A stretch of DNA of 64,000 nt from Candidatus Methanoperedens sp. (GTDB lineage Archaea > Halobacteriota > Methanosarcinia > Methanosarcinales > Methanoperedenaceae). The stretch covers positions 7,521 through 71,520 of the forward strand of contig JAQUNZ010000002.1 in assembly GCA_028717345.1 (NCBI GenBank), written 5' to 3'. Both the position numbers and the translations under genes were made by a program. Under the pieces are notes generated by a model. That model made no database searches. It was not told where the DNA came from and saw nothing but the letters and a program-made list of their open reading frames with translations. Shown piece after piece: positions 22,849 through 37,660 of this stretch; within the stretch, counting starts at the first letter, position 1; the number at the start of each line of letters is the position of its first letter.

Positions 22849-23868
22849 ATGATAGATCCTGTCAACAAATTCAAGATACCTGACGAATGGATTAAAAAGG
22901 CAAACATGCCTCTTGAAATCCTGAAATCGCGCATCAACAGTGGGCGCTATGTCCTCCTTTCAGACGGTTCTCTTCTAAGGCGCGGCTTTACGACAGGGAC
23001 GACTGCAGCGGCGGCAGCAAAGGCATCCGTCATTTCTCTAAGAAAAAAGAACATTTCTGAGGTCTATGTTCCCACTCCATCCGGCATTCGCGTTCTTCTT
23101 CAGGTCAAGGCGAACAGCGGGAAAGCTTCTGCCATCAAAGATCCGGGAGACCATGCATCAGATGCCACAGGAGGCATGGAGATTGTAGCAGAAGCAAGAG
23201 AATGTGACAGGATTATTATCAAAGCAGGCAGAGGTATAGGTTCCAAAAAAGGTCTCCCCGCAATAAATTCATCCCCCATGCGCCAGATTGAAGATGCTGT
23301 AAAAGAGGCGATCGGGGAAACAGGACTTAAAGGCGCATGTGTTGAAATATCAGTTCCAAAAGGAGTGGAGATCGCAAAAAAGACGCTGAATGCGCAGGTG
23401 GGAATATCAGGCGGGATATCTATTCTTGGCACGACTGGTTTCGTTGAACCATGGAATGAGCATCTGGGGGAAATGAAAGAAGAACTCATCAGGCAGGCAG
23501 ACAGGATCGTTCTTACCACAGGACGTCTCGGAGTGAGGTTCTCGCACATGCTTTTTCCAGGCTACAATATCATACTTATCGGAAGTGATATATCCCGTGG
23601 TCTTTCTGCGGCAAAAGAAAAGGCGGACGTCATAATATCAGGACTTCCGGGTTTGATTCTCAAATGGTCTTACCCTGATATACTAAAAGATAGCGGTTAC
23701 CTCACAGTTCAGGAAATGATCGATGAATCTCCTGATAATACCCTTATTGACAGGGGTCTTGAGAAGGCTGTGAAGCTATCGGGCAAAAGAGTGGTGCTTT
23801 TTAACAGGAACGGAACAATACTTCGCGACAGCGCGTCCGGGGGAAAAAAAAGAGGAGATTTCTTATGA
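22849..23868 (+). CDS. cbiD: Cobalt-precorrin-5B (C1)-methyltransferase
   Basis: Motifs RRGFTTGTTAAAAAKA, GISILGTTGFVEPW. Confidence 0.88.
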   Translation: MIDPVNKFKIPDEWIKKANMPLEILKSRINSGRYVLLSDGSLLRRGFTTGTTAAAAAKASVISLRKKNISEVYVPTPSGIRVLLQVKANSGKASAIKDPGDHASDATGGMEIVAEARECDRIIIKAGRGIGSKKGLPAINSSPMRQIEDAVKEAIGETGLKGACVEISVPKGVEIAKKTLNAQVGISGGISILGTTGFVEPWNEHLGEMKEELIRQADRIVLTTGRLGVRFSHMLFPGYNIILIGSDISRGLSAAKEKADVIISGLPGLILKWSYPDILKDSGYLTVQEMIDESPDNTLIDRGLEKAVKLSGKRVVLFNRNGTILRDSASGGKKRGDFL

Positions 23869-24449
23869 AAATAGTAGGCGTGGGAGCAGGACCCAATCTC
23901 TTGACCACGGAAGCGGCGTCAGCCATTAAGAGCGCAAGAATAATATTTGGCTCAAGAAGAGCGATAGAACTGGCAGGTGATTATATAAAATGCGAAGTTC
24001 ACGAAATTGAGGATTACACGCTGAATTCCCTGCCCCAGGACGCAGTCGTGCTCTCAACTGGCGATCCCATGCTTTCAGGGCTTGGGAAATTCGCAAAAAC
24101 AGGAGATGTTGTCATCCCCGGGATATCCTCACTGCAACTGGCGTGCTCACGCATACGTCTGGATGTTGAGGGGGTAGCGGTCATAACAGCCCATTCAAGA
24201 AATGTAGAGGCAGTAAAAAGCAGGTTAATAAAAGAGCTGGAAAATGGAAAAAACGTGTTTCTCCTTCCCGACGCCTCATTCGGGGTGGATGAAATTGCTG
24301 CCATGCTGAAACAACGTGGTATTTCAAGACGGATATGGGTATTTGAGAAGCTTGCCTATCCTGATGAACGTATCTCTGAAGGCACGACAGAGCGACCACC
24401 TGTTGCGAAAACCGGGCTTTACTGCATTATGATCGAAGGCGAGCCTTAA
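23865..24449 (+). CDS. cbiE: Cobalt-precorrin-7 (C5)-methyltransferase (CbiE-type)
   Basis: A tetrapyrrole methylase N-terminus: MKIVGVGAGPNLLT.EA..AI, GDPMLSG. It overlaps cbiD by 4 nt. Confidence 0.8.
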   Translation: MKIVGVGAGPNLLTTEAASAIKSARIIFGSRRAIELAGDYIKCEVHEIEDYTLNSLPQDAVVLSTGDPMLSGLGKFAKTGDVVIPGISSLQLACSRIRLDVEGVAVITAHSRNVEAVKSRLIKELENGKNVFLLPDASFGVDEIAAMLKQRGISRRIWVFEKLAYPDERISEGTTERPPVAKTGLYCIMIEGEP

Positions 24450-25009
24450 CCTTTCTCTTCCCTGGGTATCACAATTTTTTTGATATCATGCCATGTAAAA
24501 AAAACAGGAGATGAACCGTCCTGCGGTTCAAAAAAAACACCAATTGAATCAGCATGCCTGAGAATGCCATCATTTACCTTTCCAGAGATAGTATGTAATT
24601 GTACTTTTTTGTCAACGAACACGCCGAGATATACACTTGTTGGTTTCTCCTGTGGGGCAGTAATTTGTTTTTTACCTTCTTTATATGACGGAAGATCAAG
24701 ATCAGGCAGTACCTGTATCAGCTTTGAAAACCTGCTAAAAAGTTCAGAGGATTCATCAATGATAAGAACTTCAGAATAAAGTGTGAGAGCTTTTATTATT
24801 CCCTGGGAAAAACCATGATCCTGTATGATAGGGGCAAGGGAGCAAAACTCATAATTCTTGGCAGATGGGCGGGATAACACTTTTTCTACTGAAGCTGGAT
24901 TGATCTCTTTAGGCTTCCCGTCAAATTCGATACCCGCCCGGTTCATTTCAAGCAGTGTAGACCTGAGTTTCAAGATATCTGTTGCTCTTACTATTGCGAT
25001 GGATTTCAT
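24446..25009 (-). CDS. Hypothetical cytoplasmic protein (187 aa)
   Basis: I recognise no motif. It starts 3 nt downstream of small two-TM gene 'a' on the same strand, so the two are probably co-transcribed. Confidence 0.5.
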   Translation of the reverse strand: MKSIAIVRATDILKLRSTLLEMNRAGIEFDGKPKEINPASVEKVLSRPSAKNYEFCSLAPIIQDHGFSQGIIKALTLYSEVLIIDESSELFSRFSKLIQVLPDLDLPSYKEGKKQITAPQEKPTSVYLGVFVDKKVQLHTISGKVNDGILRHADSIGVFFEPQDGSSPVFFTWHDIKKIVIPREEKG

Positions 25010-25273: not shown

Positions 25274-25478
25274 TACAGGTCGCCCCACAAGTCCTATACC
25301 GCAAGGACTATATAAAATGTATCTTTTTCGCAAAATGATTATTTTAAAGGTATGCGTTGGCAAAACAAACAACAAACTATATATGGTGGTAAAGTTGATG
25401 GATATTGTAGGATAAAAAACCACTCAAATCTTTAAAAATGGGGAAAACGGGATAGGTTTAACTTCAGGTTTAAAAGAA

Positions 25479-26918
25479 ATGATCGTTACAAAGCATATTT
25501 CCCTTGATAAGGACTGCGTTGAAAAGATGAGACCTTATGTCGAACGGCATCAGGGCAATTTCAGCGCGGCGATGAGGGAAATAATAGATAAGGCAGGAAA
25601 ATCCGGGCTGCCATTTAACTCCTCTGCAATAGATAATTCTCTTTTTAAATGGATGCTCACTGAGGTATGCACCTTCATACCGGATAACGTGCTGAACGAA
25701 ATGATTGATCCTGTGCTGATAAATTCAGTGAGAAAGCTCGAAGGGTTCGTTAATTTCAGATTCCAGGACCTTGGATGGAATACAGATATTTCATTAAAAT
25801 GTGATAATGATTCATTCCCTTCCGATATTTTGATGGAAATAAAGGGTGATAACCAGAAAGTAAAGTTCATCGCCTGCATCATGTCCCAGTATCTTGTCAA
25901 GAACTCGCTTGAACGTTCCCCGCTTGAGATTAATTCTGTCGTAAATTTTAATGAGGGAATAAAGATCGAACTATCCCGATCTAATAAGAATGAAGCGCTC
26001 AACAGCCTTAACACATTTTTCGGAGGGATGGATGAAATATTTAAGATCATAAAAGGCTATCCAACCTTCTGGAAAGCTATAATTTCCAGACATCATTTAA
26101 GCAATTACAACATGGTCACTGTCCACAGGAATTACTTTGAAGAACTTCTGGCGAACAACATACCGCTCGGGGAAATAACAATAGAGAACCTGGCAAAAAA
26201 ACCCATCCAGGAAATTCCATTGGTGCAGATGCTTCCTCTAATAAAAGAGGTATATGAGACCGCAAGGGTCGTAGACCGGGTGGAGATCGATAAAGACAAT
26301 GTTATTTTGTTCCATAATTATAGAAACAAGGATGCAATAGAAAAACTAAAAAAGATCCTTGTTACGTTGTTGGAGATTAACGGTCATTTATATGATGCAA
26401 AATCCACAGCCAATATGATCGTGCTGACGCACAGGCCAGATGTGGGATTGAAGATCAATGAGGTCGTGGATAATCTGAAAACAAGCAACAATAGAGTGGA
26501 TCAGGAATTATTAATGTTCATGGCTTTCCTGAAAGGGCTAAAGAACATCCCCGACATCCCCCTGTCCCTTACCTCCCTGGGTAGAAGAATGGGCAAAACC
26601 CTGATGCAGGAATACGAAAAGGAGAATGTCATCAGGAAATGGGACCTTGCAAGCTTCAAAAAGGCATTTGAGATGATCAATTCCAAACTCCGCACTGAAA
26701 GCGAATGGAAACTTGACGGGAATATTCTGCTCTATACGGTGAAGAGATGCAATATCGCCAATGAAGGAAATAAACTTGATACATGCGTCTGCCATACTTC
26801 AAGGGAAACCTTCAAAGGCGCGTTGAATCATGCGTTCGGAAATACAGCAAAATTAGAGATCAAGAAATTAATATCACATGGTGACGAATTTTGCCAGGTC
26901 GTAATAAAGCTTCCATGA
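25479..26918 (+). CDS. RHH-like / V4R-like tri-Cys protein, paralog P1 (479 aa)
   Basis: N-terminus: MIVTKHISLDKDCVEKMRPYVERHQGNFSAAMREIIDKAGK. Centre: NYNMVTVHRNYFE. C-terminus: ...RCNIANEGNKLDTCVCHTSRETFKGA..HGDEFCQVVIKLP. Confidence 0.8.
   Translation: MIVTKHISLDKDCVEKMRPYVERHQGNFSAAMREIIDKAGKSGLPFNSSAIDNSLFKWMLTEVCTFIPDNVLNEMIDPVLINSVRKLEGFVNFRFQDLGWNTDISLKCDNDSFPSDILMEIKGDNQKVKFIACIMSQYLVKNSLERSPLEINSVVNFNEGIKIELSRSNKNEALNSLNTFFGGMDEIFKIIKGYPTFWKAIISRHHLSNYNMVTVHRNYFEELLANNIPLGEITIENLAKKPIQEIPLVQMLPLIKEVYETARVVDRVEIDKDNVILFHNYRNKDAIEKLKKILVTLLEINGHLYDAKSTANMIVLTHRPDVGLKINEVVDNLKTSNNRVDQELLMFMAFLKGLKNIPDIPLSLTSLGRRMGKTLMQEYEKENVIRKWDLASFKKAFEMINSKLRTESEWKLDGNILLYTVKRCNIANEGNKLDTCVCHTSRETFKGALNHAFGNTAKLEIKKLISHGDEFCQVVIKLP
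26112..26131 (+). repeat. Invariant 20-mer ATGGTCACTGTCCACAGGAA (copy 1 of 4)
   Basis: The identical string occurs in all four paralogs at the MVTVHRN codons. Confidence 0.9.
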
Positions 26919-26939
26919 GAGCAAAAAAAGGAAAGGGAC

Positions 26940-27245
26940 CTACCTGGGTTGTATCCCTCTCCCGAGTTCTTCGTACATCATTTCTTTTTCTTTCTTCAAT
27001 TCTGCTTCCCTGCGTGCCAGAACTCTCATAGCTTCGGTAGGTTTGATACCCACGGTAATCCTGTGTTTCCGTTCCTTCATGTATTCAAGGAAACTCCATG
27101 TCATATATACTACGAATGCAGCCGGTATGAAGAACAGCCACCCTGCGGTAAAGGTGATGAAAGTTTCTGCGGGATAAAAATACGCCGCCATCATAAAACC
27201 CATTGCCGCAGTTATTGCCACAATATATTTTAACCGGGTGTCCAT
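26940..27245 (-). CDS. Small two-TM protein, family member 'b' (101 aa)
   Basis: ...GWLFFIPAAFVVYMTWSFLEYMKERKHRITVGIKPTEAMRVLARREAELKKEKEMMYEEL. It is collinear with member 'd'. Confidence 0.7.
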   Translation of the reverse strand: MDTRLKYIVAITAAMGFMMAAYFYPAETFITFTAGWLFFIPAAFVVYMTWSFLEYMKERKHRITVGIKPTEAMRVLARREAELKKEKEMMYEELGRGIQPR

Positions 27246-27276
27246 ATTATATCACCTCTTCAATCTAATCTATCTG

Positions 27277-27287
27277 ATGACAATGTC
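27277..27287 (-). promoter_or_regulatory. Conserved leader box GACATTGTCAT upstream of small-TM gene 'b'
   Basis: It is part of a ~55-nt upstream block that aligns with the blocks upstream of 'c' and 'd'. On the + strand it reads TGACAATGTCA, itself a palindrome. Confidence 0.35.
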
Positions 27288-27569
27288 AAAAGTGTATTTG
27301 GTAAGGCAAAGGTCAGGAACCAGCATTAAACGCCACAGAGGCTGAATTATGGCGTATGAATCCACTAATACAGATATATAAAAATGTATCAGGATTTGGG
27401 TACCATAATAACATTCTATTTGGTTTTTAAAAACCATGGATCAGGTAATCATGGAATAATAAGTAGAAACCGTACATTTTTTTTTTATTTTGTCTCACAC
27501 ATTCCACAATACAGTTCATCGTGACGAGAAGAGGCAACTCAGTCACAGGATGTTCTCAAACACTTCTAT

Positions 27570-27580
27570 AACATTGTCAT
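27570..27580 (+). promoter_or_regulatory. Conserved leader box AACATTGTCAT upstream of small-TM gene 'c'
   Basis: It sits in the same position relative to the GGTGATA..ATG Shine-Dalgarno/start as in 'b' and 'd'. Confidence 0.35.
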
Positions 27581-27608
27581 TTGATATGTTAGTTCAAGGT
27601 GATATTAT

Positions 27609-27791
27609 ATGGAAAACCGGACAATAGAAACTCAGATAAAATATCTGGGAGTTGTAGCTGCTGCCCTTGTTTTTCTGGCAGCTGCGTATAGCCTGCCGAC
27701 TGAAACCTTCTTTGGCATCTTTGCTGCAGGATTATTCCTGATCCCGGCAGCATTCTTTGTATACGTCGTCCAGAAGGTTGCGAAAACATAA
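27609..27791 (+). CDS. Small two-TM protein, family member 'c' (60 aa, lacks the charged C-terminal tail)
   Basis: ...AAGLFLIPAAFFVYVVQKVAKT. It has the two TM segments only. Confidence 0.6.
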   Translation: MENRTIETQIKYLGVVAAALVFLAAAYSLPTETFFGIFAAGLFLIPAAFFVYVVQKVAKT

Positions 27792-27858
27792 GAGCGGTGG
27801 ATACCGATGGATCGTCAGGGAGATAAAAAACAACATGAAATATGCGGGGTTGATCTCA

Positions 27859-29301
27859 ATGAGTATTACAAGACACATCTCTCTTGACGATGACCATATT
27901 GAAAAAATGAAACAATATATCGATAAACATAATGGTAACTTCGGCGCTGCGCTAAGAGAGATGATAAACCTGGCAGGAAAGTACAGCCATCGTTCGAATT
28001 CATCTGCCATAGATATATCGTTACTAAACTGGATGCTCTCGGAGATAGATGGCATACTTATTCCTGATGACATACTGGACGAAACGATAAACTCCATGCT
28101 GATCAATTCTATGGGAGAACTGGAGGAATACCTGAAACACAGGTTCTCTGAACTCGAATGGGGTACGGATCTTGTTCTGAAATATGACCGGGATTCGTTC
28201 CCTTCTGATGTATTGGTCGAAATAAAAGGTCCATCTCAAAGAATAAGGTTCGTGGCTTGTATGGTCTGCCAGTACCTGGTGAAAAACTCACTTATCCAGT
28301 CGCCACTTGAGATAAAGAAGGTAACAGGATCTGCTGAGTGCATAAAGGTCGAGCTTTTAAGATCAAATAAAAAGGATGCGAAAAAGAGCCTGTGTACTTT
28401 TTTCGGAGAGCGGGATGAAGTAATGAAAACCATAAAGAGCCGCCCTGCTTTCTGGAAGGCTTTGATCGACAGGCATTTGCTCAGCAACTACAATATGGTC
28501 ACTGTCCACAGGAACTATTTTGAAGATATACTTTCAGACAGGGTACCCCTGGGGGAGATAATGATAGAGAATCTGGCTAAAAAGCCGGTACGGGATATAC
28601 CATTACCAGAGATGCTCTCCCTGATAAAAGAGGTTTACGAAACATCAAGGATCGCAGACAGGGTGGAAATAGACAAAGATACCATAGCATTGTTCCACAA
28701 TTTCAGGACAAAAGAGGCAATTGAAAAGCTGAAAAATAGCCTTATCCTGCTTCTGGAGTCCAGCGGTCATTTATACGATGCGGCAACTATCGCCAATATG
28801 ATAGTGCTCAGGCACAGACCTGATGTGGGTACGAAAATAAACGAGATCGTGGCAAATCTTAAGACGAGTAAAAGCACGGTTGACCAGGAGTTGCTGGTGT
28901 TCATGGCATATCTAAAGGGAATAAAGGATATCCCGGATATTCCCATGACCCTGACCTCACTTGGCAGGAGGACAGGCATTTACCTTATGCAGGAATACGA
29001 ACGTGAGAACAGCATCAAGAACTGGGACCTGGATACCTTCAGTAAAGCTCTTGCGATGATCGATTCCAGGCTTCACAGGGAGAGCGAATGGAAACTCGAC
29101 GGAAATAATCTTCTGTATACTGTCAGGAAGTGCAATCTTGCTTCGGATGGAAATTCGTTTGATACTTATGTGTGCCGTACTGCAAGGGAGACGTTCAAAG
29201 GCGCATTGTATTATACTCTTGGGAACAGGGCAGAATTGAACATTAATAAATTGATAACCCGTGGTGATAATTTTTGTGAGGTGATGATACGAATACCATA
29301 G
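27859..29301 (+). CDS. RHH-like / V4R-like tri-Cys protein, paralog P2 (480 aa)
   Basis: The start was trimmed to MSITRHISLDDDHIEKMKQYIDKHNGNFGAALREMINLAGK so that it aligns with P1 and P4. The C-terminus is ...KCNLASDGNSFDTYVCRTARETFKGA..RGDNFCEVMIRIP. Confidence 0.8.
   Translation: MSITRHISLDDDHIEKMKQYIDKHNGNFGAALREMINLAGKYSHRSNSSAIDISLLNWMLSEIDGILIPDDILDETINSMLINSMGELEEYLKHRFSELEWGTDLVLKYDRDSFPSDVLVEIKGPSQRIRFVACMVCQYLVKNSLIQSPLEIKKVTGSAECIKVELLRSNKKDAKKSLCTFFGERDEVMKTIKSRPAFWKALIDRHLLSNYNMVTVHRNYFEDILSDRVPLGEIMIENLAKKPVRDIPLPEMLSLIKEVYETSRIADRVEIDKDTIALFHNFRTKEAIEKLKNSLILLLESSGHLYDAATIANMIVLRHRPDVGTKINEIVANLKTSKSTVDQELLVFMAYLKGIKDIPDIPMTLTSLGRRTGIYLMQEYERENSIKNWDLDTFSKALAMIDSRLHRESEWKLDGNNLLYTVRKCNLASDGNSFDTYVCRTARETFKGALYYTLGNRAELNINKLITRGDNFCEVMIRIP
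28495..28514 (+). repeat. Invariant 20-mer ATGGTCACTGTCCACAGGAA (copy 2 of 4)
   Basis: Read directly from the sequence. Confidence 0.9.
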
Positions 29302-29306
29302 AAGAA

Positions 29307-30203
29307 ATGTATTTGAGAGCAGGGAGCATAAAAATAATTGCATTGCTTTTCCTTGCCGGAATGTTCTTGACCGGGGATGCATTAGCGCAGGACAGGGTGG
29401 TGGATGCATCATGTTTTCACTGTCACACAAGACAGGTAACCCAGTTTGAAAAAAGTGTACACTTTAATAATAATATTTCGTGTACTGACTGTCATGGCGG
29501 AGACATAAGGATCAACGGCAGCGTAGTATCTATAGACGTCATGTCTAAGGATTTTGCAGGCTCGCCTTCGCGGGTTAACCTTACGACTTTCTGTTCCAAA
29601 TGCCATGAGCAGGTGACAAGGAAGTACGAAAAAAGCATACACTGGAAAAAAGTTCAAGAGGGAAGACCTCAAGCTGCATCGTGCATCGATTGCCACGGGA
29701 CCCATAATATCCTGTCTTCTAAAAACCAGGCTTCTCCAACACATCTTGAAAATATACCTTTGATGTGCGGAGGCTGCCACGAAAACCAGACAAAAATGCA
29801 AGCCTGGTACTATGGAATAAAGACCGACAGGTTTGACACCTACAAGAAATCGTATCATTACAAGTCTTACCTGGGTGGCGGAAAAGTACTTGCAACATGC
29901 TCTGACTGCCATGAGAATCATGATACGAAACCCGAAGCTGATCCTGAGTCTGCAATAAATCCGGCGAACCTGCCCACAACCTGTGGGAAAACAAATTGTC
30001 ATCCAGGCGCTAATAATGTCTATGTTTATGGCGGCAAGATCCATGAAGAGCAGTCAGTTAACCTGTTCTTCATCGATGTAAAAACGCTTGTAACATATTT
30101 CTATATAATAATGATATTGTTTGAACTGGCATTTACATTCGGGCTTATTTTCCTGGGCATTACTTCAGGACTCGATATAAAAGGGAGGAAAAATCATGAC
30201 TGA
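29307..30203 (+). CDS. Multiheme cytochrome c (6 CxxCH plus one possible CX4CH), with signal peptide and C-terminal TM anchor
   Basis: Heme motifs: CFHCH, CTDCH, CSKCH, CIDCH, CGGCH, CSDCH, plus CGKTNCH. The N-terminal signal is IIALLFLAGMFLTGDALA and the C-terminal helix is YFYIIMILFELAFTFGLIFLGI. It starts 5 nt after the P2 stop. Confidence 0.85.
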   Translation: MYLRAGSIKIIALLFLAGMFLTGDALAQDRVVDASCFHCHTRQVTQFEKSVHFNNNISCTDCHGGDIRINGSVVSIDVMSKDFAGSPSRVNLTTFCSKCHEQVTRKYEKSIHWKKVQEGRPQAASCIDCHGTHNILSSKNQASPTHLENIPLMCGGCHENQTKMQAWYYGIKTDRFDTYKKSYHYKSYLGGGKVLATCSDCHENHDTKPEADPESAINPANLPTTCGKTNCHPGANNVYVYGGKIHEEQSVNLFFIDVKTLVTYFYIIMILFELAFTFGLIFLGITSGLDIKGRKNHD

Positions 30204-31008
30204 ATTAAAATTCAGACGGTTCACGCTCAACCAGCGGATACAGCATATCATTTTCTTTACGACCTTTATATTGCTCGCATACACGGGTTTCCCATTGAAG
30301 TTCCCTGATGAGTTGTGGGCGAAATGGATGATAGCTTCGGTAGGAGGTTTTGATAACAGAACACTAATACATCACTTTTCGGGTCTCTTGATGATCGGTG
30401 TATCAGTATATCATGTTGTCTTCCATCTTATTGAGAAGCCTCGTTTTGATGTTTTGTTCAATTTACAGGATATTTCAGACTTCAAGCAGCAGATGCGTTA
30501 TTACCTGAGGCTGACAGATCAGCATCCCAAATTCGGAAGATATACATGGAAGCAGAAGTTCGAATATTTCGGAGCCGGGTTTGGAGCTGTAGTAATGGGT
30601 TTCACCGGATTATTGATGTGGAAGCCATTCGAAGCTATGCAATATTTTCCGATAGGTGTGGTGCAGATAGCTAACCTGTTCCACACATGGGAGGCGGTCC
30701 TTGCTTCTCTTGCAGTGTTCATAGGGCATTTCTATGATGAACACTTCGGGAAATTCCCGAATATATCCTGGATAACGGGAAACATATCAGCGCAAGAGAT
30801 GCGCCATGAGCATACCTTAGAATATGAAGCGGCGATGAAGGATCAGGAACCTGAAGAAGTAACAGAAACAAGCCATGGGAATAACACTGGACCTGTTACA
30901 ATGTTAGCAAAGTTAGTGTTCACAGTGATCTTCCTAGCTATTACCGTCTGGATGCTGTGGATCTCGTATAATGTACTGGTTGATGCAGTAACCACATATA
31001 TATTCTGA
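30196..31008 (+). CDS. Membrane b-type cytochrome (FdnI/HydC/PhsC-like, PF01292-type)
   Basis: RFTLNQRIQHIIFFTTFILLAYTG ... HHFSGLLMIGVSVYHVVFH ... with conserved His in the TM helices. It overlaps the cytochrome c gene by 8 nt. Confidence 0.75.
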   Translation: MTELKFRRFTLNQRIQHIIFFTTFILLAYTGFPLKFPDELWAKWMIASVGGFDNRTLIHHFSGLLMIGVSVYHVVFHLIEKPRFDVLFNLQDISDFKQQMRYYLRLTDQHPKFGRYTWKQKFEYFGAGFGAVVMGFTGLLMWKPFEAMQYFPIGVVQIANLFHTWEAVLASLAVFIGHFYDEHFGKFPNISWITGNISAQEMRHEHTLEYEAAMKDQEPEEVTETSHGNNTGPVTMLAKLVFTVIFLAITVWMLWISYNVLVDAVTTYIF

Positions 31009-31015
31009 TCCAGAC

Positions 31016-31024
31016 TTTTTTTTT
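31016..31024 (+). terminator. Oligo-T tract (T9, then ATTTT) after the cytochrome c / cytochrome b pair
   Basis: It starts 8 nt after the stop codon and looks like an archaeal poly-T terminator. Confidence 0.4.
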
Positions 31025-31223
31025 ATTTTCAGAAATATCCATCGATGGCAATCTCAAGTTCATTGTTCCGGTTTTCTGCCATCACAATAATATTATGTCA
31101 TAAATGCTGGCATACGGAAACAATTGATATCAAATACATTTTTAGTATTGTCATTGCATAAACAAACATAAGAGTGGTCATGAATATTACATTGAATAAA
31201 GTTGGTAAAAGCGGGTGGTTAAA

Positions 31224-32666
31224 TTGCCGGTATTAAGGCACATATCACTGGATGATGAGTATGTAGATAAAATGAAACCCTATCTGGAAAAAAATAGCGG
31301 TAATCTATGCGATTCTTTCAAGGAGATATTAGGACAGGCTGGAAAGTACAATTTGGGCATGAATTCATCTGCTATTGATACAGTTTTACTTAATTGGTTG
31401 CTTAAAGAAGTTGAGGATACCCTCATCCCTGATAAGGTACTTGATAAAATACTTGATCCAGGGCTTATGACCTCGATGACAAAATTTGAAAAGTTCGTAA
31501 GGCAGAGGATAGAAGAGCTTGAGTGGGATATTGGCATGGTCTTCAAATATGATAATGTAACTTTTCCATCAGAGATATTGATCGAAATGAGGGGCGCTCC
31601 TCAAAAAACAAAATTCCTGGGAAGTATATTGTCACAGTATCTTGTTAAGAACTCACTGGAATATGCGCCACTTGAGATAAAATTCGTTGTCAATATTAAT
31701 TCCTGTATGAAAATCGGATTATTCAGGTCAGATAAAAAGGATTCCCAGAAGAGTCTCAATACCTTTTTTGGAAATTTAAATGAAATAATGAACGTTATCA
31801 GGAGCCATCCTGATTTCTGGAAAGACATTATCCACAGGCACGTGGCAAGCAATTACAATATGGTCACTGTCCACAGGAATTATCTTGAAGATATTTTTAC
31901 AGATAAGATACCTCACGGGGAAATAATGATAGAGACAATGGCAAAAAAACCGGTGCAGGATATCCCATTAAAAGAGCTGCTTCCTCTCATAAAAGAGGTA
32001 TATGAGGCTGCAAGGGTTGTGGACAGAGTGAACATCGAGAACGAAACGATAATCGTTTCCCATTATTTTAGAAATAAGAATGCTGTTGAAAGATTAAAAA
32101 ATGGCCTTGTCATGCTCCTTGAATCCAATGGTCATCTATTTGATGCAAAAACAACTACCAATATGATCGTGCTCAGCCACAGACCAGATGTCGGTATGAA
32201 AATGAATGAAATTGTTGACAATCTAAGATCAAGCAATAGCATGCTGGATCAGGAATTAATGATGTTCATGGCTTTTCTTGAAGGGCTTCGTGAAATCCCT
32301 GACATCCCCCTTTCCCTCACAACTCTTGGAAGAAGGATCGGCAGGTCGCTGTTAAAGGAGTACGAAAAAGAGAATAATATTAAGGACTGGAACCTGGAAG
32401 CCTTCAAGAAGGCGATGGAAACCATCGACTCAAAGCTCCACAGGGTGAGCGAATGGAAACTGGAAAACAGAAATCTAATATATACTATCAGGGAATGCAG
32501 CATTTCAGAAACCGGGAATACCTTTGACCGTTATATCTGCCATACTATCAGGGAGGCTTTCAAAGGAGTATTGAGCCAGGCATTCGGGAATAAGGCAGAA
32601 CTGAAGATAAACAATCTGCTGTCGCGTGGAGATAGTTTTTGTGAAGTGTCTATAAGGATACCGTGA
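31224..32666 (+). CDS. RHH-like / V4R-like tri-Cys protein, paralog P3 (480 aa if TTG 31224 is the start; the alternative is GTG 31215)
   Basis: (M)PVLRHISLDDEYVDKMKPYLEKNSGNLCDSFKEILGQAGK ... ECSISETGNTFDRYICHTIREAFKGV..RGDSFCEVSIRIP. A TTG start gives the same length and N-terminal register as P2 and P4. Confidence 0.75.
   Translation: MPVLRHISLDDEYVDKMKPYLEKNSGNLCDSFKEILGQAGKYNLGMNSSAIDTVLLNWLLKEVEDTLIPDKVLDKILDPGLMTSMTKFEKFVRQRIEELEWDIGMVFKYDNVTFPSEILIEMRGAPQKTKFLGSILSQYLVKNSLEYAPLEIKFVVNINSCMKIGLFRSDKKDSQKSLNTFFGNLNEIMNVIRSHPDFWKDIIHRHVASNYNMVTVHRNYLEDIFTDKIPHGEIMIETMAKKPVQDIPLKELLPLIKEVYEAARVVDRVNIENETIIVSHYFRNKNAVERLKNGLVMLLESNGHLFDAKTTTNMIVLSHRPDVGMKMNEIVDNLRSSNSMLDQELMMFMAFLEGLREIPDIPLSLTTLGRRIGRSLLKEYEKENNIKDWNLEAFKKAMETIDSKLHRVSEWKLENRNLIYTIRECSISETGNTFDRYICHTIREAFKGVLSQAFGNKAELKINNLLSRGDSFCEVSIRIP
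31859..31878 (+). repeat. Invariant 20-mer ATGGTCACTGTCCACAGGAA (copy 3 of 4)
   Basis: Read directly from the sequence. Confidence 0.9.
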
Positions 32667-32770
32667 GCCTGCCAATAATTTTCATGCCAAGTATTGTCAT
32701 AAAAACGATTTTTTTGTCATTTCATGCCATTTCCTGACTTTGATGCTAATTTCTTGACAAATATTGTTTT

Positions 32771-32781
32771 GACATTGGCAT
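32771..32781 (+). promoter_or_regulatory. Conserved leader box GACATTGGCAT upstream of small-TM gene 'd'
   Basis: It aligns with the boxes upstream of 'b' and 'c'. The region 32680-32775 also holds 2x TTCATGCCA, 2x TTGTCAT and 2x TTGACA. Confidence 0.35.
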
Positions 32782-32807
32782 TAGATAATCAAGAATGGTG
32801 ATAGTAT

Positions 32808-33098
32808 ATGAAAAATTGGGTTAAGTATGTCGCAACAATTGTAGTCGGCGCCACTGTGATGGGAGCAGCCTATCTCCTGCCCATGGGAACCTTTCAGGCT
32901 TTCGTGATAGGGTGGTTGTTCCTCATTCCAGCGACCTTTGCCGTATACATGCTGTTCTCACTGAAAGAATACATGCAGGACAGGAAGAACAGGATCGTAG
33001 TATCGGTAAAACCTACGGAAGCCATGAAAGCGCTGGCACGCAGGGAAGCGGCGCTGATGAAAGAAAAAGAGCTCCTGTATGAAGAGCTCCAGAAATAA
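32808..33098 (+). CDS. Small two-TM protein, family member 'd' (96 aa)
   Basis: ...GWLFLIPATFAVYMLFSLKEYMQDRKNRIVVSVKPTEAMKALARREAALMKEKELLYEELQK. It ends 20 nt upstream of P4, and a GGAGG lies between them. Confidence 0.7.
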   Translation: MKNWVKYVATIVVGATVMGAAYLLPMGTFQAFVIGWLFLIPATFAVYMLFSLKEYMQDRKNRIVVSVKPTEAMKALARREAALMKEKELLYEELQK

Positions 33099-33118
33099 AA
33101 GGGATAGGAGGGAATAAT

Positions 33119-34561
33119 ATGATCGTTACAAGACACATCTCTCTTGACAACGACTGCATCGATAAGATGCAGCCGTATGTCGAAAAAAACAATGGCAATT
33201 TCAGCGCTGCTGTAAGAGAGATAATTGACAGGGCAGGAAAATACAGTTCCCTCCAGAATTCCTCTTCTATTGACAGTTCCTTATTCAAATGGATGCTGGC
33301 AGAAATAGACGGCAGACTTATCCCGAACAATGTTCTGGATGAAATAATAGATCCTGCGCAGATAGATTCATTAAGGGGGCTTGAAAAGCAACTGCTTCAA
33401 AGGTTCAGTGAACTTGAATGGAACATTGACCTTGCAATAAAATCTGACAGTGATTCATCTCCATATGACGTACTGATAGAAATAAAAGGTGCTCCTCACA
33501 AAATAAAATTCGTTGCATGCATTCTCAGCCAGTATCTGGTGATAAACTCCCCGGAGCAGGCATCACTTGGGATACGGTCGATCAGCAATTTCAGCGATTG
33601 TCTGAAAATCGAGCTTGTAAGAATGAATAAAAAGGACGCACGGGACAGCCTGAATAATTTCTTTGGAGTGATGGATGAAATAATACAGGCAATAAGGAAC
33701 CGTCCTTCTTTCTGGAAGACCGTTATAGATGGACATTTGTTGAGCAATTACAGCATGGTCACTGTCCACAGGAATTATTTTGAAGACCTGCTTGCAGGAA
33801 AAATACCAATGGGTGAGATAACCATCGAAACGCTGGCAAAAAAACCCATCCAGGAAATACCCTTAAAAGAGATGCTTCCACTGATAAAAGAAGTTTATGA
33901 AACATCAAGGGTCGTGGACAGGGTTGAGATCGACAGGGAGACAGTAATTCTGTTCCATAATTACAGGAACATAGAAGTGATAGACAAATTAAAAAAGAGC
34001 CTTATTGCGCTTCTTGAAGCCAACGGTCATTTATATGACGCAAAGTCCACAGCCAACATGATCGTCCTGACTCACAGACCTGACGTTGGCATAAAAATAA
34101 ATGAGATCGTCAGCAACCTGAAGATCAGCAACAGCAGAGTTGACCAGGAATTGTTGATGTTCATGGCTTTTCTGAAAGGCTTAAAGAACATACCTGACAT
34201 TCCTATGTCTCTAACATTCCTGGGCAGAAGGATGGGTAAGTCGCTGATGCAGGAATATGAAAGGGAGAATAGTATCACGAAATGGAGCCTGGAGACATTC
34301 CAGAGCGCTTTTGGCGCCATAGATTCCAGGCTGCACAGGGAAAGTGAGTGGAAAACTGACAAGAACAATCTCGTGTACCTTGTCAGGAAATGCAATATTG
34401 TGGCTGATGGGAACACAGTCGATAAATATGTGTGCCAGACCATACGGGAAACTTTCAAAGGGGCTATCAGTCACGCTTTCGGCGCGCAGGCGCAGCTGGA
34501 GGTCAGGAATTTGTTAACTCACGGTGACAATTGTTGTGAGGTGTTAATACGAATACCATGA
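33119..34561 (+). CDS. RHH-like / V4R-like tri-Cys protein, paralog P4 (480 aa)
   Basis: MIVTRHISLDNDCIDKMQPYVEKNNGNFSAAVREIIDRAGK ... KCNIVADGNTVDKYVCQTIRETFKGA..HGDNCCEVLIRIP. Confidence 0.8.
   Translation: MIVTRHISLDNDCIDKMQPYVEKNNGNFSAAVREIIDRAGKYSSLQNSSSIDSSLFKWMLAEIDGRLIPNNVLDEIIDPAQIDSLRGLEKQLLQRFSELEWNIDLAIKSDSDSSPYDVLIEIKGAPHKIKFVACILSQYLVINSPEQASLGIRSISNFSDCLKIELVRMNKKDARDSLNNFFGVMDEIIQAIRNRPSFWKTVIDGHLLSNYSMVTVHRNYFEDLLAGKIPMGEITIETLAKKPIQEIPLKEMLPLIKEVYETSRVVDRVEIDRETVILFHNYRNIEVIDKLKKSLIALLEANGHLYDAKSTANMIVLTHRPDVGIKINEIVSNLKISNSRVDQELLMFMAFLKGLKNIPDIPMSLTFLGRRMGKSLMQEYERENSITKWSLETFQSAFGAIDSRLHRESEWKTDKNNLVYLVRKCNIVADGNTVDKYVCQTIRETFKGAISHAFGAQAQLEVRNLLTHGDNCCEVLIRIP
33755..33774 (+). 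repeat. Invariant 20-mer ATGGTCACTGTCCACAGGAA (copy 4 of 4)
   Basis: Read directly from the sequence. Confidence 0.9.
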
Positions 34562-34633: not shown

Positions 34634-35458
34634 ATGGAAACGTTCGTTGAATACATGACATATGTAAAAGGGATCGGATATTTGCTTGTAGTGGCATTTC
34701 TGTTTGCATTCATTGCTTTCTGGATGCTTGTACATACGAAAAATAAGGATTTCGTAAAAAGCGTTCCGGTGATCGTGGTAGTATGGCTGGTGTTCGGAGG
34801 TGCCTCAGCAGTAATTTCAAACGGTAATTCGAATGGAAATAATGTAACGGCTGATACCCATGCAGAACCTGTTGTCACAGCGCCGGCATTTCCTGAGTAT
34901 TACAGCAATGGAAGCCCTGCCACCATAACCGCACACCGCGCGGAAAAATGGATGGGTGTGAACAGCTCTGAATATAGTTCAATAAGTTACGGTTCAGCGA
35001 CGGATTTCCATGCTGTTATGAGTAAAAAAGTAGCATGTACGGACTGTCACCATAACAGCGGTGATGAGATACATGCATGCAAGGATTGTCATGGCACTCC
35101 ATTTAATCCAGATGATATGGCAAAACCCGGGCTCAAGGCTGCTGTTCATGAAAGGTGCCAGGGCTGTCATACTGAAATATTCGGAGGTCCTGATGGCTGC
35201 AAGCTATGCCATACCCAGGGGTCTCCTGGTGCAGTGGCAGTGCCGGCTCCAGAAAGACCCCATACACTGACATGGGATCAGTGCCTGCGCTGCCACCCGG
35301 ATGGGATACCAGGCGGACAGAGTATAAAGATAGTCTATCACGACTTCTGCATCAAGTGCCATACAAAAGGCATTGCCGGAGCTGATAAGCTGCCATCCGA
35401 CCATGCCGGTCGTACGGGAGATACATGCAAGGGCTGCCATAAGCCAGCAGGAGGATAA
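34634..35458 (+). CDS. Heptaheme c3-type (class III-like) cytochrome c with N-terminal membrane anchor
   Basis: Heme motifs: CTDCH, CKDCH, CQGCH, CKLCH, CLRCH, CIKCH, CKGCH. There are two N-terminal hydrophobic segments. Confidence 0.85.
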   Translation: METFVEYMTYVKGIGYLLVVAFLFAFIAFWMLVHTKNKDFVKSVPVIVVVWLVFGGASAVISNGNSNGNNVTADTHAEPVVTAPAFPEYYSNGSPATITAHRAEKWMGVNSSEYSSISYGSATDFHAVMSKKVACTDCHHNSGDEIHACKDCHGTPFNPDDMAKPGLKAAVHERCQGCHTEIFGGPDGCKLCHTQGSPGAVAVPAPERPHTLTWDQCLRCHPDGIPGGQSIKIVYHDFCIKCHTKGIAGADKLPSDHAGRTGDTCKGCHKPAGG

Positions 35459-35461
35459 AAC

Positions 35462-36364
35462 ATGAAAATGAGCAGACGAGATTTTGTAAAGATCGGTGGA
35501 TCTGTTGTGGCATTGAGCCTGATGGGTAATACTGCGGCAGCAGGAACCCACAGTTTCACAGGCTACCCTGACCGCTACGGCATGCTTTCCGACCTTACAA
35601 GGTGCATTGGATGCCGCAGATGTGAGGCTGCGTGCAACAAGGCGAATAATCTTGGCACCCCAAAGACCTCTTTTGAGGATACATCTGTGTTCGAGGAAAA
35701 AAGAAGACCCTATGTTGCGGACGTTGGATCTTACACTGCGGTCAACCGCTTCGAGGTAGATGGAAAAACCGTTTACCGCAAAGTTCAGTGCATGCACTGC
35801 GAGGAGCCAGCCTGCGTTTCAGCCTGCCTTGTCGGGGCGCTGCAGAAGAGCCCGGAAGGACCTGTAACATGGAACGAAAAGGTGTGCATCGGATGCAGAT
35901 ACTGCATTACAGCCTGCCCGTTCTATGTACCGGCGTTCGAGTATTCAAGCGCATTTGACCCAAAGATACAGAAATGCTTCATGTGCCACCAGAGAATCAC
36001 AAATGGCACAGTTCCAGCATGCGCTGAAGCCTGTCCTGTTGAAGCGATTACATTCGGCAAGAGGGACAAACTTCTGAAGCTTGCCTGGTCAAGGATATGG
36101 GGCGAACCTGACAAGTATATAGACCATGTTTATGGCGAGCGTGAAGCTGGAGGCACAGGATGGCTGTACGTATCAGGAGTCCCGTTCTCAAAACTTGATT
36201 TCCAGATGGATATAGGAACAACAGCATATCCTGAATTGACAAAAGACTTTCTCTCCATAGTCAATCTCACCCTGGTCTCCTGGCCAGCGGTATTTGGAGG
36301 GATATATCTCATGAACCATAAGGATAAAAAAACTCATACTGAGGAAAAGGAGGTAAAGAAATGA
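35462..36364 (+). CDS. NrfC/HybA/DmsB-like 4x[4Fe-4S] subunit with Tat signal and C-terminal TM helix
   Basis: The Tat motif is MKMSRRDFVKIGG. The clusters are CIGCRRCEAAC, CMHCEEPACVSAC, CIGCRYCITACP and CFMCHQR...CAEACP. Confidence 0.85.
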   Translation: MKMSRRDFVKIGGSVVALSLMGNTAAAGTHSFTGYPDRYGMLSDLTRCIGCRRCEAACNKANNLGTPKTSFEDTSVFEEKRRPYVADVGSYTAVNRFEVDGKTVYRKVQCMHCEEPACVSACLVGALQKSPEGPVTWNEKVCIGCRYCITACPFYVPAFEYSSAFDPKIQKCFMCHQRITNGTVPACAEACPVEAITFGKRDKLLKLAWSRIWGEPDKYIDHVYGEREAGGTGWLYVSGVPFSKLDFQMDIGTTAYPELTKDFLSIVNLTLVSWPAVFGGIYLMNHKDKKTHTEEKEVKK

Positions 36365-37605
36365 CTGATATAATAGAAACTGAAGATCTGAGGAAAACAG
36401 AGACAGTTGAATACTGGATAAATGAACTGTTCTTTAACAGGCTCAGCATAAAAGATTATGTGAAATCGCTGATAAATCCTTTCAATATTGTTGCAGGGAT
36501 CATTGTCCTTGTCGGGCTGGCATTTATTTTCATGCGATTTGCCTTTGGTCTTGAAGCGATAACCGATTCCTCGAATACGCAGGCATGGGGACTCCTTCTT
36601 GGCGTGGGGCTGTTCACAGGCGTTCCATTCTCAGCTTCCGGGTTCGTGATGGGAACAGCTGTGTACATCTTCGGATTGAAAAAATACCAGCCTGTGGTAA
36701 CGAATGCGATCCTCCTGGGATTCCTAGGCTACCTGTTCGCAGTTGTATTCCTGATGACAGATCTGGGCAGACCCTGGCGCATCTATTATCCGATGATCCT
36801 GTCGTTCGGTCCTGCTTCAGTCATGTTCCTTGTAGCATGGCATGTGGCTCTGTATCTCTCGGTGCAGGCGCTGGAATTCTCGTCATCTGCATTTGAGTGG
36901 CTGGGAATAAGGTCGCTTCGAAAACTTGTTGTCGGCGCGACGCTGGGACTAACGATCGCAGGCATCATGCTCTCCACGCTTCATCAGTCAGCCCTGGGTG
37001 CTATGTTCCTTCTTGCTCCTGGAAAAGTGCACCCTCTCTGGTGGAGTTCGTACATGCCCTGGCTTTTCTTTGTGTCAGCCCTTGCTGCCGGGCTTGTGTA
37101 TGTGATACTTGTTAGCAAACTGACCCAGATGTTCATGAGGAACAGGGCTGATGAGCGATACCTTGCAAGCCTTGATGAGATCACTCTTGGCATCGGGAAA
37201 GCCTGCGCCCTGATACTGTTCACGTATGTGGGCTTGAGGCTTACAAGTATCACTTATGAAAATGCCTGGGGTTATTTACAGGGAGCATACGGTATGTGGT
37301 TCCTTGTTGAGTTCCTGCTGTTCGCTCTGGCTCCGCTCATGTTCTTCTACGGGGTGCAGAAAAAGAACGTCGGGATTGTGCAGGTCTCAGCTCTGGTGAC
37401 CATGATCGCAATAATCCTGAACAGGCTCAACACTGTATACATAACCTTCAACTGGCAGTTCCCCCACAGAGAACTCTTCTACTGGAAAGAGGTCATTGTG
37501 GTGATAGCTGTTCTTACAATTGAGGTTCTTGTATATCGCTGGATAGTGAACAGGATGCCAGTGCTGAGACAGCATCCTGATTTCATAGGTGAAGAGCACG
37601 GATGA
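36361..37605 (+). CDS. NrfD/PsrC-family polytopic quinone-interacting membrane subunit
   Basis: 414 aa with about 10 hydrophobic helices. It overlaps the FeS subunit by 4 nt, the classic NrfC-NrfD arrangement. Confidence 0.75.
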   Translation: MTDIIETEDLRKTETVEYWINELFFNRLSIKDYVKSLINPFNIVAGIIVLVGLAFIFMRFAFGLEAITDSSNTQAWGLLLGVGLFTGVPFSASGFVMGTAVYIFGLKKYQPVVTNAILLGFLGYLFAVVFLMTDLGRPWRIYYPMILSFGPASVMFLVAWHVALYLSVQALEFSSSAFEWLGIRSLRKLVVGATLGLTIAGIMLSTLHQSALGAMFLLAPGKVHPLWWSSYMPWLFFVSALAAGLVYVILVSKLTQMFMRNRADERYLASLDEITLGIGKACALILFTYVGLRLTSITYENAWGYLQGAYGMWFLVEFLLFALAPLMFFYGVQKKNVGIVQVSALVTMIAIILNRLNTVYITFNWQFPHRELFYWKEVIVVIAVLTIEVLVYRWIVNRMPVLRQHPDFIGEEHG

Positions 37606-37626
37606 AGTGGATTGGATAGGGTTTGG

Positions 37627-37660
37627 TCAGGGCAATGGTGTATTGCCCTGATCTTTTTTT
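37627..37660. terminator. Perfect 10-bp hairpin (TCAGGGCAAT-ggtgt-ATTGCCCTGA) followed by TC + T7, between the convergent nrfD-like and mptD genes
   Basis: Read directly from the sequence. The T-tract overlaps the mptD stop codon. Confidence 0.55.

Follow-up and report, generated by a model that had tools for sequence, protein, structure and literature searches.

The locus described here raises the question of why an archaeon should keep four closely related proteins of 479-480 amino acids within 9 kb of DNA, interspersed with the genes of two cytochrome operons that have a presumed role in electron export. The four genes, termed F1 to F4, lie in a 64,000-nucleotide stretch of Candidatus Methanoperedens sp. 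DNA (contig JAQUNZ010000002.1, positions 7,521 to 71,520 of the forward strand; this whole stretch is referred to as the window). The answer toward which we lean, with moderate confidence, is that the four proteins are one-component, autoregulated transcription factors that sense redox or metal status and control the two cytochrome operons, an answer in which we infer DNA binding, signal and cofactor. A first-pass annotation of the window had proposed a sensory DNA-binding role, and this is still the best reading in view of the receiver-domain swaps found in relatives, the promoter boxes shared within the cluster and the phased palindromes described below.

Domain organization of the four paralogs

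The four plus-strand open reading frames (ORFs) of the first-pass annotation (Table 1) are confirmed in coordinates, length and full-length collinearity by the ORF list and by an alignment in which a single one-residue gap suffices to bring the 479-480 residues of all paralogs into register end to end. Pairwise protein identity is 56-66%, close to but slightly lower than the two-thirds given there, with a mean column identity of 77%, and both the N-terminal motif x-x-x-(K/R)-H-I-S-L-D...G-N and the three invariant cysteines of the C-terminal region that it described are present in all four proteins (alignment columns 425, 439 and 473, corresponding to C424, C438 and C472 of F1). The DNA identity between paralogs is only ~64-77%, and the duplications are therefore old. 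Exactly four family copies are found when the 64-kb window is searched in six frames with the family profile. The harmonized starts on which the equal lengths depend are plausible and stop short of proof because in-frame alternatives exist, at ATG 27835 for F2 (start taken as ATG 27859) and at GTG 31215 for F3 (start taken as TTG 31224, which lies behind a GGTGG motif).

The family to which these proteins belong is small and restricted to archaea, with 114 clusters at 50% identity retrieved by an exhaustive profile search over 1.84 billion representatives. The nearest database proteins (up to 99% identical) come from assemblies of Candidatus Methanoperedens (anaerobic methanotrophic archaea, ANME-2d), and the full-length form of 480-510 amino acids is found almost only in Methanoperedenaceae, with outliers of 37-38% identity in Ca. 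Argoarchaeum and in an ANME-2 archaeon. A short form (~325-390 amino acids) lacking the C-terminal domain occurs in Methanoperedens, Methanosarcina sp. MTP4, ANME-2, Syntrophoarchaeum and others, one example comprising the N terminus and center alone in 348 amino acids; the only named Methanosarcina cluster in the exhaustive search is a 374-amino-acid short form annotated as hypothetical. In Methanosarcinales, Theionarchaea and Methanofastidiosia the N terminus and center are fused to a receiver domain (27/28 clusters retrieved with such a fusion), which takes the place of the Cys-containing domain in a modular exchange. Pfam and NCBIfam scans of the four window proteins are empty because the Pfam copy scanned lacks the PF27313 (AF_0136_C) model, and a precomputed PF27313 tag is carried by the 99%-identical protein P0001 and by every listed homolog, including the 348-amino-acid short form and the receiver fusions. 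The presence of the tag on the short form places the PF27313 domain within residues 1-340. The Joint Genome Institute (JGI) name for the family is "predicted hydrocarbon binding protein."

The N-terminal ~45 residues are likely a ribbon-helix-helix (RHH) domain, an assignment for which several results agree and no single one is significant. A segment R/K-H/N-I-S-L, a helix, the sequence G26-N27-x-S29 and a second helix are conserved in all subfamilies, with N27 invariant and G26 and S29 nearly so among 55 diverse members. Both structure models place helices at residues 11-23 and 28-42, and conservation and models together agree with the RHH succession of strand, helix A, G-x-(S/T/N) turn and helix B over some 45 residues. 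RHH_1 (PF01402) is the Pfam family most frequently retrieved with 46-residue N-terminal segments (5/23, best E 0.0015, all below threshold), and the best PDB sequence match of the N-terminal profile is the RHH domain of NikR (1q5v), aligned end to end over residues 3-39, against residues 2-39 of 1q5v (37 residues), at an E value of 0.13, which is below significance. No helix-turn-helix (HTH) family matches the window proteins in Pfam at E≤1. The RHH-like N terminus of the first-pass annotation is thus consistent with each of these weak signals, and a significant Pfam match is absent.

The full-length structure model (predicted local distance difference test score, pLDDT, 75.5; predicted template modeling score, pTM, 0.44) gives as its top natural Foldseek matches Bet3 (TRAPP), H-NOX, PoxR and MopR, with E values of 1e-4 to 5e-3 and target TM scores of 0.37-0.50 (0.37-0.39 for PoxR and MopR). 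When residues 1-340 are folded alone as a control the Bet3, PoxR and MopR matches are gone and H-NOX falls to E≥0.05 with a root mean square deviation (rmsd) of ~15 Å. Because the matches vanish without residues 341-479, the fold signal belongs to the C-terminal ~140 residues, which are placed by the model, at modest scores, in the Bet3/H-NOX/V4R fold class; MetOD1 is the closest member of that class. The same superfamily is reached from relatives of the window proteins. Two stand-alone relatives retrieved by the family profile score above the MetOD1 cut-off (P0214 with 26.9 bits against 23.8, and P0229 with 27.7 bits) and also touch V4R and ATC_hydrolase, the V4R score of P0214 being below its cut-off (20.1 against 31 bits); a full-length relative, P0137, matches MetOD1 below the cut-off (E 0.0037, 17.8 bits), and the family profile reaches an ArsR-HTH plus V4R-like fusion, P0234, at E 9e-4.

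The three cysteines are invariant across all subfamilies and in all of these relatives, aligning with cysteines of those that score against MetOD1 or V4R, and with a glycine and a tryptophan they are the only invariant residues of the C-terminal domain. No histidine of this domain is invariant across the subfamilies and relatives, and for this reason H-NOX-type heme ligation is unsupported; H-NOX sequence matches appear only at E ~0.9, and the tetrapyrrole sensing put forward in the first-pass annotation finds no specific support. The cysteines are spaced by 14 and 34 residues, compared with 26 and 8 in MsvR. Judged by spacing against P0214, the classical middle cysteine appears to be missing, with an upstream strand cysteine conserved in its place. 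In profile searches neither the whole protein nor its C-terminal domain has a significant match among PDB sequences. The use of P0214 as a sequence bridge to solved V4R structures also gave no matches, so that the mapping of the cysteines onto MopR and MsvR is by spacing only.

In secondary structure the ~290-residue center can be read as two tandem α-β-β-α-β-β-α modules (residues 84-181 and 248-335). A Foldseek search with the truncated model finds no convincing structural relative of the center in the PDB, the matches being designed proteins and I-DmoI at poor TM scores. Kinship with I-DmoI (LAGLIDADG) was rejected, as its two lobes have no more than topology in common with the two modules (TM ~0.22, rmsd ~26 Å). 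Also rejected were an internal triplication, seen in the model as three units of helices plus β-β-α-β-β and given a probability of <1% by hhalign between segments, and a derivation from degenerate V4R repeats, for which the truncated model has no Bet3/V4R match and the sequence no repeat. The center had matched nothing nameable in the first-pass annotation; by the precomputed tag it is now covered by PF27313, although that family is itself uncharacterized.

Gene order and promoter elements of the cluster

Gene order was compared across 78 fetched loci, 41 of which have two to four copies on one strand. Written with F for a family member and s for a small membrane protein, the arrangement that recurs is F-s-F-[7-heme-motif cytochrome + cyt b]-F-s-F-[7-heme-motif cytochrome + NrfC + NrfD]; the order s-F-cytochrome-NrfC-NrfD is kept in >30 loci. 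The first slot is conserved as well, following cbiD, methylase and DUF356 genes. Of the 68 copies with a clear slot, 65 find their closest relative from other loci in that same slot (32/32 for the F4 slot, counted over the 78 fetched loci and the window), and identity is 74% within a slot compared with 61% between slots. Because nearest relatives share a slot the four copies are ancient positional orthogroups, kept apart since before the sampled Methanoperedenaceae diverged, and not the product of the four-fold local amplification envisaged in the first-pass annotation. This slot-specific retention suggests non-redundant inputs or mixed oligomers. A filter for slot-specific residues was passed by 2 positions only and is uninformative on where the paralogs diverged.

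A multiheme cytochrome gene lies within 2 kb of 67/136 family copies. Other subfamilies have other settings, one among Hdr- and Frh-like genes and one among housekeeping genes. A 29%-identical subfamily member (locus L079, 6001-13479) overlaps a GAF-PAS histidine kinase gene by 4 nt and is followed, after the kinase gene, by genes for a KaiC-like ATPase, two KaiB proteins, a PAS kinase and a REC-PAS protein, a set that may be a signaling operon.

The units of the cluster share a promoter box, CAAAYA-N11-TTGKCAT, which has four matches in 64 kb (0.02 expected) and no more with one mismatch allowed; the pattern was derived from the same four sites and the informative part is the absence of other matches. 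Each box heads one unit, these being s1, s3-F2-cytochrome-cyt b, F3 and s2-F4-cytochrome-NrfC-NrfD, and the box recurs at equivalent places in 19 other loci. The box upstream of s2 ends an array of TGNCA sites (Table 1) containing the sole strict WTGNCAW cluster in 64 kb (32684-32781). Over 59 non-identical orthologous and paralogous promoters of s genes there are 3.7 WTGNCAW sites per 160 nt, compared with 0.59 in dinucleotide shuffles (maximum 0.85), an enrichment of ~6-fold, and nearly all pairwise spacings are 10-11, 20-21, 30-31 (a few at 32) or 40-41 nt, that is, multiples of ~10.5 nt. Short palindromes phased by one helical turn are a product of cooperative RHH binding, as in Arc, Mnt and CopG. 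Enrichment of k-mers across orthologs was abandoned as a measure, an intra-operon control (upstream of NrfD) being equally strong from conserved coding sequence; because it is confounded by shared ancestry, the counts and spacings within promoters were used instead.

Two further elements precede family genes. A tandem AAAAYGGG-type element precedes genes of the position-1 type in at least 12 other loci, from at least 12 species, among them the P0021 orthologs that lack cytochrome genes nearby. Its counterpart upstream of F1, AAAATGGGG-AAAACG, is unlike the TGNCA box and could represent another type of operator. In the P0142-type subfamily (L074 and L076-L078), where the ribbon motif reads R-K-N-I-S-L, a conserved inverted repeat ACATTCATAACAGG...TGTTATTACGAATGT lies ~60-110 nt upstream of the family gene and may be an operator of different specificity.

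The coordinates of the cluster are collected in Table 1. The gene for s3, with its own promoter box, escaped the first-pass annotation; phmmer identifies s3 as a homolog of s1 and s2, and its orthologs in other Methanoperedens loci are 55-60 amino acids long. The conserved tail of s1 and s2 reads RK(H/N)RIxV(S/T)VKPTEAMKALARREAELKREKE. Pfam and PDB profile searches match s to no known family, and a possible RHH-like character of the tail was discarded after profile searches against PDB and Pfam found nothing. The types of cytochrome operon encoded here match highly expressed menaquinone:cytochrome c oxidoreductase clusters reported in Methanoperedens (PMC7082337).

Directly upstream of F1 a neighborhood conserved in many species (22849-25009) encodes CbiD, a tetrapyrrole methylase and, on the minus strand, a DUF356-like protein; it is a possible link to corrinoid synthesis. 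A Methanoperedens-type F-s-F segment with its promoter box is also present on a 1591-bp contig labeled "Flavobacteriales bacterium" (L072, CAJPFH010000088.1), which is probably mis-binned; the same project also yielded a Methanosarcinales metagenome-assembled genome. Elsewhere in the window two islands of low GC content (4298-7150 and 41993-43732; ~30% GC compared with ~46% in the remainder) encode an Eco57I/MmeI-type restriction-modification methylase and an AIPR abortive-infection protein and are probably acquired defense islands.

Table 1. Genes and candidate regulatory elements of the F1-F4 cluster (window coordinates)
Feature	Position	Strand	Basis or context
Tandem AAAATGGGG-AAAACG element, 30-44 nt upstream of F1	25435-25449	+	Only exact match in window
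F1 (paralog 1), 479 aa; RHH-like N terminus, AF_0136_C-type center, Cys3 V4R/MetOD1-like C terminus	25479-26918	+	ORF, alignment, structure model
s1, small membrane protein, 101 aa; two hydrophobic segments reading as transmembrane helices and a conserved charged tail	26940-27245	-	ORF; beside family genes in most loci
Promoter box CAAATACACTTTTGACATTGTCAT heading s1; holds TGACA-T-TGTCA palindrome	27277-27300	-	
Promoter box heading s3-F2-cytochrome-cyt b unit	27557-27580	+	Equivalent site in L004
s3, 60-aa membrane-only paralog of s; own promoter box and GGTGAT ribosome-binding site	27609-27791	+	Directly upstream of F2
F2 (paralog 2), 480 aa; stop codon 5 nt before cytochrome start codon	27859-29301	+	Slot directly upstream of cytochrome and cyt b pair conserved
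Multiheme cytochrome c, 6 CXXCH and 1 CX4CH	29307-30203	+	Pfam NapC/NirT, Cytochrome_C7
Cytochrome b561-type membrane protein	30196-31008	+	Pfam Ni_hydr_CYTB
Promoter box heading F3; three more TGNCA sites upstream at -147, -128 and -116	31131-31154	+	
F3 (paralog 3), 480 aa if start is TTG 31224	31224-32666	+	Conserved slot after cyt b
Array of eight TGNCA sites, spacings 15, 10, 20, 10, 30, 15 and 6 nt; ends in fourth promoter box (32758-32781)	32670-32781	+	
s2, small membrane protein, 96 aa; 20 nt upstream of F4	32808-33098	+	
F4 (paralog 4), 480 aa; 72 nt upstream of second cytochrome operon	33119-34561	+	
Seven-heme cytochrome c	34634-35458	+	Pfam and heme-motif count
NrfC-like 4Fe-4S protein with TAT signal	35462-36364	+	Pfam
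NrfD-like membrane subunit	36361-37605	+	Pfam
Terminator-like hairpin, 13-bp stem then T-run	37625-37653	+	Closes the unit

Proposed function and its alternatives

In the arrangement that we propose, the N-terminal ~45 residues would pair in a dimer as an RHH domain reading short palindromes, the ~290-residue center would be a scaffold or oligomerization body lining dimers up on one face of the DNA, and the C-terminal ~140 residues would form a V4R/MetOD1-like sensor of redox or metal status. The three invariant cysteines could hold a metal or Fe-S center or act as redox-active thiols, comparable with the V4R cysteines of MsvR, and it is by analogy of this kind that the Cys3 domain would be a redox or metal sensor. 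Binding would take place at the shared promoter box, whose TTG(T/G)CAT site closely follows a TATA-like element, and at the phased TGNCA arrays. The proteins would thereby control their own genes, the gene of the small membrane protein transcribed with them and both operons of the menaquinol:cytochrome c oxidoreductase type. The binding to these particular sites and the role of s are proposals.

A number of observations weigh against a regulatory assignment of this kind. In the monomer models residues 1-6 are disordered and form no strand, which is expected of an RHH protein because the RHH strand forms in the dimer only, and the RHH models of Pfam have no match to the full-length window proteins at E≤1. 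The same holds for Pfam V4R (PF02830) and MetOD1 (PF18546) with the four window proteins at E≤1, so that the V4R-like C terminus of the first-pass annotation stands at the level of fold and superfamily and not of the Pfam family itself, and the cysteines of the triad are not spaced as in classical V4R domains. With a pTM of 0.44-0.47 the relative placement of the domains is not fixed in the models. The dedication to cytochrome operons claimed in the first-pass annotation holds in this clade but does not extend to the P0021 orthologs (73% identical), which have no cytochrome gene within 10 kb, or to divergent clades, which have none nearby in the fetched flanks. Because the compared promoters descend from common ancestors, the fact that they are conserved does not count as independent evidence. 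No result ties the protein physically to the box or the arrays, which might instead be an ordinary promoter common to the units and the binding sites of another factor, respectively. F2 and F4, finally, are apparently co-transcribed with structural genes, which fits an accessory or assembly protein too.

The alternative that departs least from the proposed sensor keeps the four proteins as regulators and makes the cysteines a structural zinc site only, as in MopR and PoxR, with a small organic ligand (a quinone, an aromatic or a hydrocarbon-like compound) bound in a V4R-like pocket as the signal. The phenol-sensor domains of PoxR and MopR are indeed among the fold matches, the JGI family name refers to hydrocarbon binding, and MopR binds zinc through Cys and Glu residues. 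These matches are weak, however, at TM scores of 0.37-0.39; the respiratory cytochrome operons alongside favor a redox or electron-acceptor signal, and MsvR, the closest archaeal precedent, switches by redox through its V4R cysteines. A three-Cys cluster is in addition common to V4R and MetOD1 (Galperin et al., PMC5847659), a point that agrees with the zinc site. On this balance we regard a purely structural role for the cysteines as unlikely, if worth keeping in mind.

It is a little more doubtful that the proteins are not transcription factors at all but cytoplasmic accessory factors of the two cytochrome complexes (for assembly or cofactor delivery, or as a peripheral subunit), docked to the membrane through s and co-expressed with their partners. 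Such a role would suit the 5 and 72 nt that separate F2 and F4 from the cytochrome genes, the s-F-cytochrome order kept in >30 loci, a center with no known fold relative and a Cys3 domain that could carry a cofactor. It accounts less well for the RHH-like N-terminal motif, for relatives that join the same module to receiver domains or sit in histidine kinase operons and so follow a signaling logic, for F1, F3 and the P0021 orthologs, which are separate units or far from cytochrome genes, and for family members in lineages and loci with no cytochrome gene in the fetched flanks. Least probable of the three is that the box and the TGNCA arrays belong to another regulator or to a strong shared core promoter, the four proteins binding elsewhere (for example only at the AAAAYGGG repeats) or regulating unrelated genes. 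In its favor, the results connect the protein with no particular site, another conserved motif precedes the position-1-type genes, and two motif types are present although the four paralogs hardly differ in their ribbon residues. Within the 64 kb, however, the box occurs only at the unit heads of this cluster, it travels with the family genes across species, and the one-turn phasing of the short palindromes is typical of cooperative RHH binding.

The autoregulated transcription factors favored here can be extended to a membrane-coupled decision circuit, in which the Cys3 domains would respond to electron flux or to how reduced the quinone pool is, s would tether or release particular paralogs, and mixed RHH oligomers on the TGNCA arrays would choose the menaquinol:cytochrome c oxidoreductase for each electron acceptor. 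This extension is speculative and as a whole improbable; if true, extracellular electron transfer in anaerobic methanotrophs would have its first described regulatory switch, one that rests on AF_0136_C as a DNA-binding scaffold for which no structural relative is known.

Comparison with known systems

Methanoperedens couples the oxidation of methane to nitrate, iron, manganese or electrodes, as is thought through cytochrome b/multiheme-cytochrome and NrfCD/multiheme-cytochrome complexes of the types encoded here, and the complexes that are expressed differ between species (PMC7082337). The searchable literature yielded no paper on how these cytochrome operons are regulated. The locus supplies four candidate regulators, a conserved small membrane partner and defined candidate operator sites, and because the operons share distinctive promoter sites their regulation is directly testable. 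It also provides a first functional hypothesis for PF27313, an uncharacterized family named after an Archaeoglobus fulgidus protein and tagged on all forms of the family, whose module also partners receiver domains in the response regulators of Theionarchaea and Methanofastidiosia.

The closest archaeal precedent, MsvR, is a methanogen-specific V4R-domain regulator of Methanothermobacter and Methanosarcina in which a DNA-binding domain is joined to a V4R domain with three cysteines, and it binds repeated boxes in its own promoter in a redox-dependent manner (PMC3729527). The likeness to F1-F4 lies in the combination of a DNA-binding domain, putative in F1-F4, with a V4R-type domain that has three cysteines. 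MsvR has ~250 amino acids, an ArsR-type HTH and no counterpart of the ~290-residue center, whereas the proteins here have 480 amino acids and an RHH-like N terminus, which sets them outside the MsvR family, and the MsvR cysteines C206, C232 and C240 compare with C424, C438 and C472 of F1. Sequence similarity to MsvR is not detected, save that the family profile reaches the ArsR-HTH plus V4R-like protein P0234.

The MetOD1 domain is V4R/HNOB-like with three conserved cysteines (Galperin et al., PMC5847659) and has its fold in common with the C-terminal ~140 residues here, which likewise have three conserved cysteines, while a Pfam match to the window proteins is lacking at the threshold given above. 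MetOD5, a ~300-residue domain with no Pfam entry that occurs alone or as MetOD5-REC (Galperin et al. 2018, PMC5847659), is a possible counterpart of the family; the likeness is one of size and architecture, and no Methanoregula protein is among those retrieved. The H-NOX heme sensors have a conserved proximal histidine and a heme-contact motif, which are not found in the C-terminal domain here. OrpR was considered as a parallel and set aside as a loose analogy, its Cys triad being located in a PAS domain. NikR differs from the family in its length of 133 amino acids, its ACT-like nickel-binding sensor and its lack of a central region, but it combines an N-terminal RHH domain with a C-terminal sensor and is encoded beside the operon that it controls, which is the same logic as that proposed here for F1-F4.

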